DNA of 64,000 nucleotides, taken from assembly GCA_963815095.1 (NCBI GenBank), contig CAWFFH010000006.1, positions 32,001 through 96,000 on the forward strand. The letters run 5' to 3'. Shown one piece after another: positions 6,863-32,184 of this stretch; the first letter of the stretch is position 1; the number at the start of each line of letters is the position of its first letter. Source of the DNA: Candidatus Bathyarchaeota archaeon. GTDB taxonomy: Archaea; Thermoproteota; Bathyarchaeia; Bathyarchaeales; Bathycorpusculaceae. The position numbers and the translations under genes were made by a program. The notes beneath the pieces were generated by a model. It made no database searches and was not told where the DNA came from. It was given only the letters and a program-made list of their open reading frames with translations.

Positions 6863-7993
6863 CTAAGGTATAATTTCGCAGCCGTTGTACTTGAGGTAAT
6901 CGAAATCTTCAAGCCTAATTTTTTGGTTTTCTATTAGTTGCTGGATTCTTGGAACCTCACTTTTCACAGACTCGACTAGTTGCTCAACGGTGTAGCAAAC
7001 CTTGCTGTATGCTTCATCCGTCCATCTTTTTGTTATGTTTGTGTATAAGCATCTGCCGCCACAAATGTTGAGGATAGTGCATTGGCTACAGGGTTTTTCG
7101 TTAACAAACAGCTTCTTTAACTTAAGTGGATCAGAATCTTTAATGTGCCCCAAATAGTATTTTTTCATGCCCCACATCGTTGGACAAGGCATAATATAAC
7201 CATCCGTTTGGATGGCGTAATTTATCCAGCCACCTCCACAACGCATGAGACAGTTCTTCTCTTCATGCAAAAGCGACCCTGCAATACCCAGTAACGGATA
7301 AAGCTTCAGCGCCACGCCCTTTTCCTGCATTTGATCCACCCAGAACCGCGCGAGTTCTCGAACGCCTGGGATATAGTTAGTTTTTGTCCATTCTTCAAAG
7401 TTCCGTCTTTGATAATCGTTTCCCCAAAAACCGGCGTTAAGCTGCCAATGTATTGACGAAAACGAAAATTCTTCGTTATCCAGTAGCCATCGGACTTGTT
7501 TGTTGATGTCGGTTTGCTCCATTATTGTCATGCGAGCGATTAATTCGCCTGCGAAACCGTTTTTCTTTATTAGTTTTAGGTTATCGATGACTTTGCGGAA
7601 AGTGCCCACTCCACGGTAATAGTCTGTTAAGGCTTCTTCTCCATCTATGGAAACGAGGATTGTGTGGAAGCGATTAACGTACTTGGGCTCCAACTTGTCA
7701 AGAAGCAAGCCGTTGGTTTGAATCATAAAATGTTTTGGTTCAACTTTATCCATGATTTGCCGGAGTTTATCTATGCCCAGTAAGGGTTCGCCGCCGTAGA
7801 AAGTTAAAACGCATTCGGGGTCTTTACTGCAAAATTCTTTGAGTAATTCCAAATCATAGTTTAGTTTTCGAGGTAAATCGTAATCTACTTCGATGTCGTC
7901 GCCGAATTCTTCGTCGAAATCGTCTAGGCTCTCGCCAAAGCAGTATTTGCATTGCAGGTTACAATCACTTGTGAGTAGGACATGAAAGAACAT
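6863..7993 (-). CDS. Radical SAM/SPASM domain protein (resembles archaeal AF0577/TIGR04084-type)
   Basis: CNLQCKYC motif, FYGGEPLL and C-terminal SPASM cysteines (CGGG, MPCP, CSQC...CGGRC). Confidence 0.88.
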   Translation of the reverse strand: MFFHVLLTSDCNLQCKYCFGESLDDFDEEFGDDIEVDYDLPRKLNYDLELLKEFCSKDPECVLTFYGGEPLLGIDKLRQIMDKVEPKHFMIQTNGLLLDKLEPKYVNRFHTILVSIDGEEALTDYYRGVGTFRKVIDNLKLIKKNGFAGELIARMTIMEQTDINKQVRWLLDNEEFSFSSIHWQLNAGFWGNDYQRRNFEEWTKTNYIPGVRELARFWVDQMQEKGVALKLYPLLGIAGSLLHEEKNCLMRCGGGWINYAIQTDGYIMPCPTMWGMKKYYLGHIKDSDPLKLKKLFVNEKPCSQCTILNICGGRCLYTNITKRWTDEAYSKVCYTVEQLVESVKSEVPRIQQLIENQKIRLEDFDYLKYNGCEIIP

Positions 7994-8185: not shown

Positions 8186-8413
8186 TTGGTGCGGGCTTTG
8201 GTAGGTCTTTCTAAAAATCAAAAACGACTTGTGGAAATGCTAAAGATAAAGCCTGACATGACAACCAAGGAACTTGCCGAAATGATTTTTGGGAAAATTA
8301 TAGATTACAAATCAAAAGAATACGCTTCTGTCTATCGAAGCTTAATTTCCTTGGAAAAACAGGGTTGCATTAAAAGAGTACAGGTTCAACTTCGCTGGCA
8401 AACGACTAACTAA
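8186..8413 (+). CDS. Small winged-helix DNA-binding protein
   Basis: LSKNQKRLVEMLK...MTTKELAEMI...SVYRSLISLEKQGCIKR wHTH pattern. Confidence 0.75.
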   Translation: MVRALVGLSKNQKRLVEMLKIKPDMTTKELAEMIFGKIIDYKSKEYASVYRSLISLEKQGCIKRVQVQLRWQTTN

Positions 8414-8492
8414 AAAGGTATTTGCACTGTAAATTGCAGTTAGACACCGTTAATACACTGAAGAAAATATTTAGCTAAAGAATGAGTGTTGC

Positions 8493-9848
8493 TTAATAGT
8501 ATTTTTCAGCGAGTTTTCTTGCTTCAACTTCTTCAGGAGTTTCTTCCGCTTCATTTTCTTCTTGATCTTTTTCTTCCTTTTCGTGCTGGTCTGTTTCCTT
8601 TTCTTTTTGAACTTTCTTAAGCGCCTTGTTTACATAATTAAAAAGGTCTCTACTCTTCATTAATTTATCCGAAAGAGATTCGGGAGCATAAAGCAAAGGT
8701 ATAGTAGCTATAAACAGCAAGAAGCTTGCTAAGGAAAAAGCGGATCCAACCGGTTGGTCAGGTGGAGTAAGAAATTGAGCCATCACTTGAACAAATCCTG
8801 ATAGTAAAAATGGTAATCCTCCTAAGAAATAGTACTTCTCACGGTTGCTTGTTTCTGAAAGATCACCCCAGACAACAAAAACAAAATTAACATACAGGAA
8901 ACCCCAAGCAAGTCCATCGAAAACTGTAAAAAGAATTATGGCAACCAGACCTGTTGGAATTAAGCTTAGAAAGGCATAACCTATTCCTAACAGAACAAAT
9001 CCCACGATTCCAGTAACTTTTCTTCCTTTCAAATCACAAAGAAAACCTGCCGCGAGTGCTGTTAAGCTCGTTATTACAAGCGTTGCCAACTCATAATTTG
9101 AATAATAATTATTTGAATCAATACCGTCCATGTATCCTTTAACTAAGGGAGTTAACATAAAATTAACAAGTGTGAACATGAACCAAGGTAAGAAGTAAAG
9201 AATAAAAGTTCTGTCTCTCAAAATTTTTAATAGAGTTAATTTTCGTTCTTTGTCATTATTCTTTATTTCAATGAGAAAGAATATTCCTAATAAACCCATA
9301 ATTCGCCATATTGAAAAGATTAAAAATTTGTAATCTATAGTTGATTCACCTAAAATAAAAATAATTATCGCTGTCATTATTTGAATTATGAAGAACAAAG
9401 CTGCTCCAATTCTACCTAATTGTTCATTTTTGGTTTGGTTTGCGAACATTGAAAGGCATGTTGGAATTCCTAAACCGACCGATCCACCTAGTATAAACGA
9501 AATTACTCCCAAAATAACCCAATTTGTCTGAGGCACTAAGAAGAAATAGGTTAATAGTGACGACAAGACTCCCCAAAGTATCCATAACTTTAGAAATGAT
9601 TTCTCTTTCAGTTTTTGGGCTAAAAGAGTAGCTCCAATTAATGCAGAGAACAATAATGCCGCGAAATATGGAATAGAAACCACATAAAAAGTGTTGGCAC
9701 CACTAAATTGGATGTTATTTGGCAAATCCAATATTGTAACCATGGTTAATAAGAACCACGATATACTGTTTGCAACCACGAATAGCGGCAGTAAGGTCTT
9801 TAGTTTTGCTCCGAGCATCTTGTTTCTGAATATACTGCTTGTCACCAA
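8493..9848 (-). CDS. MFS-type membrane protein with charged C-terminal tail
   Basis: About 12 TM segments, motif-A-like AGFLCDLKGRK and a terminal PES motif. Confidence 0.8.
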   Translation of the reverse strand: MVTSSIFRNKMLGAKLKTLLPLFVVANSISWFLLTMVTILDLPNNIQFSGANTFYVVSIPYFAALLFSALIGATLLAQKLKEKSFLKLWILWGVLSSLLTYFFLVPQTNWVILGVISFILGGSVGLGIPTCLSMFANQTKNEQLGRIGAALFFIIQIMTAIIIFILGESTIDYKFLIFSIWRIMGLLGIFFLIEIKNNDKERKLTLLKILRDRTFILYFLPWFMFTLVNFMLTPLVKGYMDGIDSNNYYSNYELATLVITSLTALAAGFLCDLKGRKVTGIVGFVLLGIGYAFLSLIPTGLVAIILFTVFDGLAWGFLYVNFVFVVWGDLSETSNREKYYFLGGLPFLLSGFVQVMAQFLTPPDQPVGSAFSLASFLLFIATIPLLYAPESLSDKLMKSRDLFNYVNKALKKVQKEKETDQHEKEEKDQEENEAEETPEEVEARKLAEKYY

Positions 9849-9983
9849 TATATACTAACTTTATGAATTTACGATGCATTTTTTTGATTCATATTGGCTA
9901 ATTTTTTGTTTGTATTGTGTATAACTGTTTAACACAAAGCTTAAATTGAGTTGTTCTACACATATACAATTAAGGTGAGGAGA

Positions 9984-10037
9984 ATGAAGAAGGCAACGAA
10001 AAAAGAAATGAGGAAACCAGTAGTATTCGCTTGGTAA
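9984..10037 (+). CDS. 17-aa peptide MKKATKKEMRKPVVFAW (candidate prenylated peptide precursor), absent from ORF track
   Basis: AGGTGAGG RBS at 9973-9980 and TATA-like CTTAAAT at about 9940. Its stop is 7 nt from the convergent stop of the prenyltransferase gene. Confidence 0.7.
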   Translation: MKKATKKEMRKPVVFAW

Positions 10038-10044
10038 ATTATCC

Positions 10045-11037
10045 TCAAAGATCCTCCAACATTGAAGCGATAACAAGCTCTAAAGAGCCTCTTTCTCTCT
10101 TGCTCTTTAATTTAGAGAGAGCTTGTATCGCTTCATTTTCTAACCTTTTTAAGTATTTCATCAATAAGGGAAGAGTATTCGTTTCTTGAATAATTTTCAA
10201 AAGCTCACGAGAATCATTTGAACTAATTTTATCTTTTGATAATAGTTCCCGAATTTTTGACGAATAAGCCTTGTTCTGAAGAGCATATAACAATTGAAGG
10301 GGAAGGCACCCATTTTTTATCCTATCAAATAACTCGTCTGGTTCAAAAAGATCAGCAAACTCTGCCCTAACAGCCAACAGCGTACCTAAATTTCTCCCAT
10401 AGACGCCCATTGCCTCGATTTCCTCTTCAGATCCGCCGCTAAAGATTGCACCTATTTTCATTCGACCTTCAATTTCTGCAGCTTTCTTAGTCAAAACCTG
10501 TAAATATGTTTCCGGCTTCACACTCCGACGTATTTTTTTCAATTCTATTTCAGAGATATGAGCGTTTACAACTTCAGCCAAGAAACTATTCATAATCTTC
10601 ATTATTAGATCCTGACGATCATTCGGTAATTTTGAAATACATTGATGAAGATAGTAGAAACTTCTTGTCATATACTCATCACCGATGAGCAAAGTGGTTT
10701 CTAGACCAAGTTTACCATAGGGAGTCTTTATTTTCTTTTTAGACAATGATCCATCAATTAAATCATCATGAATATCCATAGTAACATCAATGAATGATAA
10801 TGCAACTTGCAAAGGCACTATGTCTTCCAACTTGCCACCAACTGCTTCACTGGCAATTGCAAGAACGCCCGGTCTGGTCGTATCCTTCCATCTAGAAATA
10901 TATTGTTCAATTGCTCTATCGATTTTGCCATAACCGAAATTATTTTCATTAACAAGTTGCTGAAAAATAGCAAGAGCCTTTTCGCTTTTTTGATTAAGAA
11001 GCAATAAAGCTTTTTCAGCTTTGTTTTCTTGAGTCAT
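10045..11037 (-). CDS. Polyprenyl synthetase-fold (trans-IPPS) protein with degenerate SARM; candidate ComQ-like peptide prenyltransferase
   Basis: FARM HDDLID intact. SARM position reads VRAEFAD, GKRxRP reads KDTTRP and post-FARM RRG reads KKK. Confidence 0.85.
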   Translation of the reverse strand: MTQENKAEKALLLLNQKSEKALAIFQQLVNENNFGYGKIDRAIEQYISRWKDTTRPGVLAIASEAVGGKLEDIVPLQVALSFIDVTMDIHDDLIDGSLSKKKIKTPYGKLGLETTLLIGDEYMTRSFYYLHQCISKLPNDRQDLIMKIMNSFLAEVVNAHISEIELKKIRRSVKPETYLQVLTKKAAEIEGRMKIGAIFSGGSEEEIEAMGVYGRNLGTLLAVRAEFADLFEPDELFDRIKNGCLPLQLLYALQNKAYSSKIRELLSKDKISSNDSRELLKIIQETNTLPLLMKYLKRLENEAIQALSKLKSKRERGSLELVIASMLEDL

Positions 11038-11226
11038 ATGGCTCTTATTGTGGGTAAATTGATATAATATTTTCGTAGCAAGAATTTTTGTAGAATTTAG
11101 AATTATTTTTTGACTGAGGTATGGTTGAATTCTTTTACAATCTGATATTATTCAAAATCATTATTTATGGGAATTATTTGTCGAATACAAAACTCTTAAT
11201 AGCTTTATTAATAATTCAACAGTTTC

Positions 11227-31893: not shown

Positions 31894-32184
31894 ATGAGTT
31901 TTAACGTTGTTTTCTACGTTTTGGAGCTGACCGTTTTTGGTGACATAGCAGACCTAAATAATTCAATACTGCTCATTCTGTGGATTTTGTCTATTGCAGG
32001 TTTAATCTCAGCAAGAAAGTTGGGCGCAGCAATTGCAACATTCTCACTGACTTATGCTTTTTGCTTCAACACATTCAACGTCATTTATTTCTCAATCTAC
32101 CTGCTTAACGGAACAAGTGCAATCATAAACGCAATAGCTATCACATACATGTTCCGCAGCATTTTTAAAAAAAAGTTTAATTGA
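31894..32184 (+). CDS. Hypothetical membrane protein (start uncertain)
   Basis: Hydrophobic ORF with basic C-terminus. Confidence 0.55.
   Translation: MSFNVVFYVLELTVFGDIADLNNSILLILWILSIAGLISARKLGAAIATFSLTYAFCFNTFNVIYFSIYLLNGTSAIINAIAITYMFRSIFKKKFN

Follow-up and report, generated by a model that had tools for sequence, protein, structure and literature searches.

The locus considered here lies in a 64,000-nucleotide stretch of DNA, called the window below (positions 32,001 to 96,000 of contig CAWFFH010000006.1, assembly GCA_963815095.1), from a Candidatus Bathyarchaeota archaeon, whose genome belongs to the Bathyarchaeia and counts 2.69 Mb in 9 contigs. Five neighbouring genes are found in and around the region of interest (8186-11037 of the window). 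They encode a radical S-adenosylmethionine (SAM) enzyme, a small winged helix-turn-helix (wHTH) protein, a major facilitator superfamily (MFS) protein, an enzyme of trans-isoprenyl diphosphate synthase (trans-IPPS) fold and leucyl-tRNA synthetase (LeuRS, gene leuS). The 196-nt spacer between the enzyme and MFS genes contains an open reading frame (ORF) of 17 codons, and this mini-ORF and its relation to the enzyme are the subject of the present analysis. A first-pass annotation, made from the sequence alone, had noticed this unannotated ORF at 9984-10037 on the plus strand (peptide MKKATKKEMRKPVVFAW), with a ribosome-binding site AGGTGAGG and a TATA-like box CTTAAATT at 9940-9947, and had proposed that its product is prenylated on Trp by the enzyme. 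The ORF and both signals are indeed present, and the coordinates confirm that it diverges from the MFS gene and converges on the enzyme gene, the two stops lying 7 nt apart.

Relatives of the enzyme have been gathered from a protein database, from 200 further genomes of the class (201 with that of the window), from one genome per species (21 loci) and from metagenome contigs (63 loci). In the 21 close genome loci, the enzyme is 46-98% identical to that of the window. A conserved mini-ORF was expected beside such homologs, and it is found at the same position and on the same strand, convergent on the enzyme stop, in 19 of the 20 assessable genome loci (through alignment in the case of L036), as well as in 52 of the 55 assessable metagenome loci of this close family, L086, L110 and L112 being the exceptions. 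It counts 15-23 codons, runs on the strand opposite to the enzyme gene and ends within a few bases of the enzyme stop, the distance between the two stops ranging from -27 to +48 nt and being mostly 1-7 nt. As a control, 1589 gene 3' ends of the same genome were inspected, and an ORF satisfying loose criteria occurs at 45 of them (2.8%), one satisfying strict criteria at a single one (0.1%). The start codon is TTG or GTG instead of ATG in L035, L092, L100 and L125, its position behind the Shine-Dalgarno (SD) site being unchanged. Ten peptides of 21-23 residues gave no Pfam or NCBIfam match at E values up to 10.

The 69 copies of the close family reduce to 58 distinct nucleotide sequences and 56 distinct peptides, with a consensus made of a basic N-terminus followed by [R/K]-K-K-P-[V/R/K]-[R/V]-hydrophobic-x-[W/I/L/F/S]. 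In all but two of the 58 nucleotide versions, a proline stands exactly at position -6 from the C-terminus, and the lysine preceding it (position -7) is invariant in these 56, encoded 47 times by AAA and 9 times by AAG. All four codons are used for the conserved proline, AGG, AGA, CGG and CGA for the arginine at -9, and all six codons for the arginine at -4. Since the residues are held through such AGR/CGN codon switches, selection acts on the peptide, and not on an RNA or DNA site. A profile was also built from 54 distinct peptides, whose enzymes are less than 65% identical to that of the window; it ranks the window ORF first among 127,965 ORF tails of the genome, and this rank is the result, the score itself (14.8 bits, E 0.17) being not significant alone. 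It appears very probable that this is a true gene with a functional link to the enzyme-MFS pair.

Some Bathyarchaeia loci depart from this plan. A tandem-duplicated segment in L037, L043 and L044 carries the mini-ORF with its promoter and, at least in L037, the 3' end of the enzyme gene. L054, the twentieth assessable genome locus, is a decayed cassette between intact flanks, with frameshifted enzyme and MFS genes and a mini-ORF that has lost its stop, which suggests that the module is dispensable.

The expression signals of the mini-ORF were compared by aligning 75 distinct upstream regions, from close and distant cassettes. These regions share the same order of elements, namely CAAAGCTTATAT, 8-9 nt, TGTTCAACAGATATACAG, an SD site of the GGTGA/GGAG type and the ATG, with the SD site at an equivalent position. 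The TATA-box columns (AAAGCTTATAT) are 60-90% conserved. Conservation reaches 90-99% in the columns of the element at 9952-9968 (TGTTCTACACATATACA), in close and distant cassettes alike, and this element, which is also present in two loci of another class, may be an operator or an initiator. A search for RNA runs covering 8400-11100 of the window listed none, and it is from the TATA box, the promoter element and the SD site that the mini-ORF can be inferred to be expressed. The 2.69-Mb genome contains the core motif of the middle element at four sites only, including the mini-ORF promoter. Two of the copies lie about 33 nt before the starts of paralogous PadR-like genes outside the window (C3:1160595, plus strand; C4:192097, minus strand). 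The mini-ORF and these two genes may share a regulator, which should be taken as a lead. The positions of all features are collected in Table 1.

Table 1. Features of the locus, with positions in the window
Feature	Position	Strand	Basis
Mini-ORF, basic peptide of 17 residues; Lys-Pro core at -7/-6 from the C-terminus; hydrophobic tail, last residue Trp	9984-10037	+	ORF reading, conservation, codon-level selection
Enzyme of trans-IPPS fold, 330 residues; putative peptide prenyltransferase	10045-11037	-	PF00348, AlphaFold2 model, motif comparison
MFS-like protein with 12 transmembrane segments, 451 residues; putative exporter or receptor of the peptide product; exact start codon uncertain	8493-9848	-	PF07690
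Small wHTH protein, 75 residues; facultative neighbour, possible regulator	8186-8413	+	Weak TrmB, FUR and Sta1 matches only
Radical SAM/SPASM enzyme, family TIGR04084; conserved neighbour	6863-7993	-	305 bits
Divergent promoter region, common to the mini-gene and the MFS gene	9849-9983		Window sequence, upstream alignments
SD site AGGTGAGG	9973-9980	+	3 nt ahead of the ATG
TATA-like box with B recognition element (BRE), AAAGCTTAAATT	9936-9947	+	About 40 nt ahead of the ATG; upstream alignment
Promoter-proximal element TGTTCTACACATATACA, between TATA box and SD site	9952-9968	+	Conserved columns in the upstream alignment
First aspartate-rich motif (FARM) DIHDDLID, residues 88-95	10753-10776	-	Four Asp invariant in 66 of 66 close-family enzymes
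WKDTTRPG, residues 50-57, replacing canonical GGKRxRP	10867-10890	-	Alignment with the genome's own canonical paralog
Pseudo-second aspartate-rich motif (pseudo-SARM) RAEFAD, residues 224-229, preceded by Leu221-Ala222 (canonical Phe-Gln)	10351-10368	-	HMMER alignment to 1wy0

The enzyme matches PF00348 with 64.5 bits, for a cut-off of 27, and scores far under the cut-off of every NCBIfam equivalog (at best 72.9 versus 468 bits). Its AlphaFold2 model has a predicted local distance difference test score (pLDDT) of 93.4 and shows the trans-IPPS all-alpha fold, with Foldseek template modelling (TM) scores of 0.70-0.80 to geranylgeranyl diphosphate (GGPP) synthases, octaprenyl diphosphate synthases and Ord1. 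The nearest solved structures belong to the first two groups, the best one being the GGPP synthase 1WY0 (TM 0.80, 21% identity, sequence E 3.3e-23); the indole prenyltransferase Ord1 comes at rank 17. The donor side of the active site is kept. As had been proposed from the HDDLID signature, the FARM is intact, its aspartates D88, D91, D92 and D95 being invariant in the 66 close-family enzymes and the motif being kept in distant and other-class members too; Lys100/Lys101 at the RRG position and Lys185, the lysine of the KT motif, are also retained. Comparison with the canonical paralog of the same genome shows that the lysine of GGKRxR is replaced by Asp52, again invariant in the 66 close-family enzymes. 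Alignments to this paralog and to 1wy0 further reveal that Phe-Gln before the SARM has become Leu221-Ala222, and that a gap of five residues falls at the Lys-bearing loop after the SARM. In this enzyme family, these three elements form the isopentenyl diphosphate (IPP) side of the active site. By sequence, the enzyme thus retains an allylic-diphosphate donor site and has lost the IPP acceptor site.

The SARM itself requires a more nuanced description. The close family has [A/S]-[E/D]-x-x-D at this position (AEFAD in the window), and distant and other-class members with a mini-ORF show DDxxD, EDxxD, DExxD or EExxD. The enzyme had been called SARM-less, and RAEFAD does stand at the SARM position, but the motif is weakened rather than gone, and only in this sub-family. 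Similarly, the announced changes of the basic motifs are present, KDTTRP for GKRxRP and KKK for RRG, but KKK is still basic. As far as sequence comparison can tell, the mark of the family is a remodelled IPP site, not the loss of the SARM. Two canonical-scoring polyprenyl synthases are encoded elsewhere in the genome (214 and 184 bits), so that the enzyme is free for another role. The family should not carry a chain-elongating synthase annotation, the label 'GGPP/heptaprenyl synthase' being a misannotation. The net charge of the enzyme was also considered as a clue and is uninformative, with a median of 0.

The tails of the peptides have been compared on a tree of the 66 close-family enzymes, where they appear clade-specific. 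The peptide had been presented as Trp-terminal. Tryptophan is indeed strongly enriched near the C-terminus, but it is not invariant: it is the last residue in 41 of the 66 peptides, with four changes on the tree, and lies within the last five residues in 42, whole clades being devoid of it. An aromatic residue is found within the last five in 61 of the 66. In known Trp prenyltransferases, position 222 is a Gln contacting the indole, according to a review (PMC13290415). Residue 222 of the archaeal enzyme is Ala in all 41 rows with a Trp-ending peptide, and Val, Leu, Thr, Ile or Met where the peptide ends with Ile, Leu or Ser, one Ile-ending row excepted; the non-Ala cases include the one peptide with Trp at -3 and Ile at its end. 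Ala222 is also present in three Phe-ending rows and in the exceptional Ile-ending row, which is a close relative of two of them. This distribution looks like a size compensation between enzyme pocket and peptide tail, and offers a lead.

The arrangement extends well beyond the close family. Behind distant enzymes of the class (27-38% identity), most loci again have an MFS gene, and a convergent ORF of 12-23 codons is found at the equivalent site in 22 of the 28 assessable distant Bathyarchaeia loci. Most of these ORFs encode a basic start, Lys-(x)-Pro-Val/Ile-Arg and a short tail, usually with Trp. Across 301 genomes of the phylum, the family profile finds a match in 42, of which 22 belong to other classes. 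Twelve of these 22 loci were sampled, eight of which have a convergent mini-ORF with a Pro-Val/Ile-Arg-x-Trp core; Trp is present in all eight, and the peptides are not polybasic. Two tandem copies of the mini-ORF, each with its own SD site, occur in four other-class loci of family f39 (L147, L148, L153 and L154). A search for AmoA in five genomes, made without a positive control to identify this family, found none. In L007, the peptide is present and no MFS gene was detected within 1.5 kb. Judging from these sequences, the enzyme-MFS-peptide arrangement is much older than the close sub-family. Two further configurations have been noted. Tandem enzyme paralogs are followed by one mini-ORF and one MFS gene in G077:C13:75581-77633 and G136:C31:22696-24748. 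The genome of the window itself encodes a second enzyme-MFS pair (C4:139161-140153; L062 5120-7501), which scores 193 bits with the family profile and has an MFS protein 34% identical to the first one.

Another prominent feature of the locus is its variability. In the 31 loci with both leuS and the enzyme gene, which give 465 pairwise comparisons, the similarity of the enzymes is decoupled from that of the neighbouring leuS products. The most striking case is provided by L009, L013, L018 and L046, in which the LeuRS N-termini (240 residues) are 96-98% identical, the enzymes 33-39% and the MFS proteins 32-39%, and which contain four different mini-ORFs. Likewise, genomes of the same genus compared with the window show 78-80% identity for LeuRS, 76-81% for the radical SAM enzyme and 28-34% for the enzyme. 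The peptide gene and the enzyme and MFS genes on either side of it move together, as a single cassette whose alleles are deeply divergent. Divergence in place cannot give such a pattern, which requires an exchange of these alleles between conserved flanks. The base composition agrees with this exchange. The block 8186-11037 had been described as more AT-rich than leuS, and its GC content is indeed 35.0%, whereas leuS has 45.5%, the radical SAM gene 42.4% and the window as a whole 41.2%; at third codon positions, GC is 30% versus 45-48%. Divergent alleles between conserved flanks are also seen at the comQXP locus of Bacillus, where they define pherotypes, and at bacteriocin-immunity loci. The pattern fits a specificity system, for example a pheromone or an antagonistic peptide, and such an extreme allelic divergence beside near-identical flanks suggests selection on specificity.

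The neighbouring genes were compared as well. The order enzyme, spacer, MFS gene is kept in 20 of the 21 close genome loci, in agreement with the synteny that had been predicted, and the radical SAM gene comes next in 19, the exceptions being contigs that end early. The synteny also predicted with the wHTH gene did not hold, this gene adjoining the cassette in only 7 of the 21 genome loci (and in some metagenome or distant loci). The MFS protein matches PF07690 (MFS_1) with 42.7 bits, for a cut-off of 33.4. It is as divergent as the enzyme, and it has a motif-A-like G-x-x-x-D-x-x-G-R-K segment, of which Asp272, Arg276 and Lys277 are conserved in 64 homologs. The C-terminus of the family (window 8493-8700) contains a conserved ...PETLPEK... 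helix and ends with Glu-Lys-Tyr(-Tyr). Some alleles, including that of the window, have a low-complexity acidic insertion, about 35-45 residues long, before this conserved end. This acidic tail was considered as a possible dock for the basic peptide and was discarded, since the insertion is variable and many homologs have a short basic tail.

The radical SAM/SPASM gene, which the first-pass annotation did not mention, is part of the conserved neighbourhood. Its family, TIGR04084, is single-copy in 91 of the 201 class genomes, versus 34 of 201 for the enzyme, and a search with this family also matches in Sulfolobus acidocaldarius. The gene is adjacent in 6 of the 12 extended distant loci and in many metagenome loci; no member of the family was detected in five genomes that carry the cassette (G077, G136, G169, G184 and G124). 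After TIGR04084, the NCBIfam models best matched by the radical SAM protein are those of peptide maturases, among them PapB and the nif11 type. The gene stays outside the hypervariability and the low GC of the cassette. It is probably a conserved neighbour, rather than an obligatory partner or a maturase of the peptide, but may have a role in the close family. A role as lipid enzyme was considered too and no assignment was made, Grs enzymes being of the B12 type and Gms having an extra N-terminal domain according to their published descriptions. A literature search on TIGR04084 or AF0577 returned unrelated accession-number matches only.

How could the three products of the cassette work together? 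The peptide made by ribosomes from the mini-ORF would be cognate to the convergent enzyme, which most likely uses it as prenyl acceptor. This enzyme would bind an allylic diphosphate through the retained donor site, and no longer IPP. It would then move the prenyl group onto the C-terminal tail of the peptide, onto Trp where it is present, as PalQ and ComQ do, and the MFS protein would export the resulting cationic lipopeptide or sense it. Prenyl transfer, acceptor atom, export and biological role are all inferred in this scheme. That the locus is a ComQ/PalQ-like module, new for archaea, in which the peptide is prenylated by the enzyme, is a plausible reading to which we give an evenly balanced credence. 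A more ambitious extension would see here an archaeal peptide-pheromone or kin-recognition system, in which a transferase of IPPS fold would be dedicated to a minimal, leaderless prenylated peptide, an MFS protein evolving along with them would act as exporter or receptor, and pherotype-like alleles would be swapped among related Bathyarchaeia at a fixed chromosomal site; this proposal as a whole is clearly speculative.

The prediction of a Trp-prenylated peptide module is thus backed by a true mini-gene, linked to those of the enzyme and the MFS protein, and by a remodelled IPP site, but several observations weigh against it. Trp is far from universal: 24 of the 66 close-family peptides have none within their last five residues and, in 5 of the 66, aromatic residues are altogether missing from this stretch, their enzymes keeping the FARM, and the covariation at residue 222 rests on 2-3 independent contrasts and is not significant. 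The mini-ORF is not seen in 5 of the 28 class-level loci (L011, L014, L019, L025 and L030), L032 being ambiguous, nor in 4 of the 12 other-class loci; the second enzyme-MFS pair of the genome, on contig C4, has a spacer of about 100 nt without a mini-ORF. When a profile of 19 distant peptides was run on the 127,965 tails, the window peptide was not among the 6,690 matches listed. Because of this failure, homology between close and distant peptides is not claimed, and the two sets can be said to display a common architecture and an apparently similar core. The enzyme also departs from the known systems. ComQ needs the FARM together with an ND/GD pseudo-SARM, NDxxx or GDxxx (PMC5331326), and all characterised peptide prenyltransferases related to trans-isoprenyl diphosphate synthases target Trp and share a Gln before the SARM, as stated in a 2026 review (PMC13290415). 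At the SARM position, the archaeal enzymes read [A/S]-[E/D]-x-x-D, or DDxxD in full. The ND/GD motif and the Gln, by which ComQ, PalQ, StheQ and Ord1 are recognised, are both absent from the archaeal family. Unlike comQX and stheQX, which are co-directional, the archaeal genes are convergent. Finally, no histidine kinase is encoded among the five neighbouring genes, the wider genome not having been searched for kinases.

Several other explanations of the locus have to be weighed. The simplest, a chance open frame in an AT-rich spacer, can be regarded as already refuted: a frame of 17 codons in DNA of 29% GC is not rare per se, but conservation, codon evidence, expression signals and controls all oppose it. 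It is more difficult to dismiss a peptide that is a real partner without being a substrate, such as a small subunit, regulatory or structural, of the enzyme or the MFS protein, or else an inhibitor of either one; the enzyme would then make a non-peptide isoprenoid moved by the MFS protein. Linkage and co-inheritance would be equally well explained, and so would the persistence of Trp-less and aromatic-less peptides beside intact enzymes, the full DDxxD SARM in distant enzymes and the pair without peptide in this genome. However, the enrichment of Trp near the C-terminus and the fixed spacing of the proline point to a tail read by the active site, precursor genes are typically found duplicated in tandem, as is the peptide gene in some loci, and an enzyme deprived of its IPP site needs another acceptor, so that such a non-substrate role is considered rather unlikely. 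The mini-ORF could also act in cis, with a functionless peptide, if its translation (for example through stalling at the stop) or a transcript antisense to the 3' end of the enzyme gene regulated the enzyme or the MFS gene. A stop that abuts or overlaps that of the enzyme and a fixed length from proline to stop would suit this mechanism, and two Pro-ending tails resemble what we take to be known arrest motifs. Yet there is no downstream gene on the mini-ORF strand, two tandem copies on one transcript are ill-suited to a leader peptide, and the C-terminal residues vary by clade with the enzyme, which a ribosome-tunnel signal would not need. Regulation in cis is therefore held to be improbable.

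The two remaining proposals dissociate the peptide from the enzyme. An unmodified cationic peptide, either an archaeocin or a membrane-active peptide, would have the MFS protein as exporter or immunity protein and the enzyme as a mere neighbour. The polybasic N-terminus, the hydrophobic tail and the hypervariable, horizontally exchanged cassette, similar to bacteriocin loci, are in line with this view; it conflicts with a gene position tied to the enzyme stop, with the presence of the peptide in L007, where no MFS gene was detected within 1.5 kb, with the other-class peptides, which are not polybasic, and with the co-variation of enzyme clades and peptide tails, and seems improbable too. Alternatively, the peptide might be the substrate of the radical SAM/SPASM enzyme (TIGR04084), for example for a Lys/Arg-to-Trp cross-link, in a cluster for a radical-SAM-modified ribosomal peptide. 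The position of this gene after the MFS gene in most close genome loci and in many metagenome loci, its resemblance to the PapB and nif11-type maturases, and a peptide with an invariant Lys and frequent Trp could be explained in this way. But the family is far more widespread in the class than the enzyme and reaches S. acidocaldarius, its gene is not adjacent in 6 of the 12 extended distant loci, the five cassette-bearing genomes cited above have no detected member, and the gene shows neither the hypervariability nor the low GC of the cassette; this possibility looks quite doubtful.

The prenylation reading would have several implications if correct. Peptide prenylation by enzymes of isoprenoid-synthase fold is known from few bacteria (ComQ, PalQ, StheQ), and this case would be the first in archaea; no description of such a system in archaea was found in the openly accessible literature. 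Should the pheromone hypothesis hold, Archaea would have a first recognised module for signalling between cells by peptides. The Bathyarchaeia rank with the most abundant archaea of sediments and soils, and little is known of their interactions. The mini-ORF partner of this enzyme family is overlooked by gene callers. A tiny conserved gene beside a misannotated enzyme is a directly testable module, the substrate being a cheap synthetic 12-23-mer.

Comparison with characterised enzymes of the same fold helps to situate the archaeal family. Canonical archaeal GGPP synthases, represented by 1WY0, are the best match in both sequence and fold and have the FARM in common, but the replacement of the lysine by Asp, the loss of Phe-Gln and the deletion of the loop after the SARM set the archaeal enzyme apart. 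Ord1 (PDB 9V4G-J), an all-alpha-helical indole prenyltransferase, shares the fold and matches the family profile at E 3.5e-14. It acts, however, on free tryptophan, and is no nearer to the archaeal enzyme than ordinary GGPP or octaprenyl synthases.

The closest chemical precedent would be PalQ of Paenibacillus alvei, which belongs to the same isoprenoid-synthase fold superfamily, a comparison that rests on fold and on the published description. In that description (PMC10853753), the Trp of the ribosomal peptide prenylated by PalQ has to be the very last residue, additions after it abolish the reaction, and the proposed core of PalX ends with Arg-Arg-Phe-Phe-Trp. This end resembles the archaeal Pro-Val-Arg-Phe-x-Trp tails, and the entry of the C-terminal Trp of PalX into the active site, as described in the same paper, has its counterpart in the fixed spacing from Pro to C-terminus and the mostly C-terminal Trp of the archaeal peptides. 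The two systems differ in the precursor, which for PalX is long, of the NHLP type and freed of a leader by cleavage, whereas the whole archaeal product counts 12-23 residues with no evident leader, and in the partner gene, which encodes a histidine kinase in the bacterium and an MFS protein in the archaeon.

ComQ/ComX, as well as StheQ/StheX from Sphaerobacter, provide the other term of comparison. ComQ and StheQ modify a Trp located two or three residues from the end (bioRxiv 10.64898/2026.08.29.745113). As in the archaeal cassette, the trans-IPPS fold is associated with a kept FARM and an altered second motif, and a gene for a small peptide adjoins that of the enzyme, Trp being borne by most but not all of the archaeal peptides. 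The Bacillus com locus is, moreover, polymorphic between conserved flanks, where it defines pherotypes, and is in this respect comparable to the hypervariable archaeal cassette. Unlike ComQ/ComX, the archaeal locus has no ComP/ComA pair, and Trp is not universal in its peptides. The archaeal enzyme is thus not filed in the ComQ family, and the cassette is better viewed as a probable archaeal counterpart of such systems, independent of them and with a proposed chemistry.

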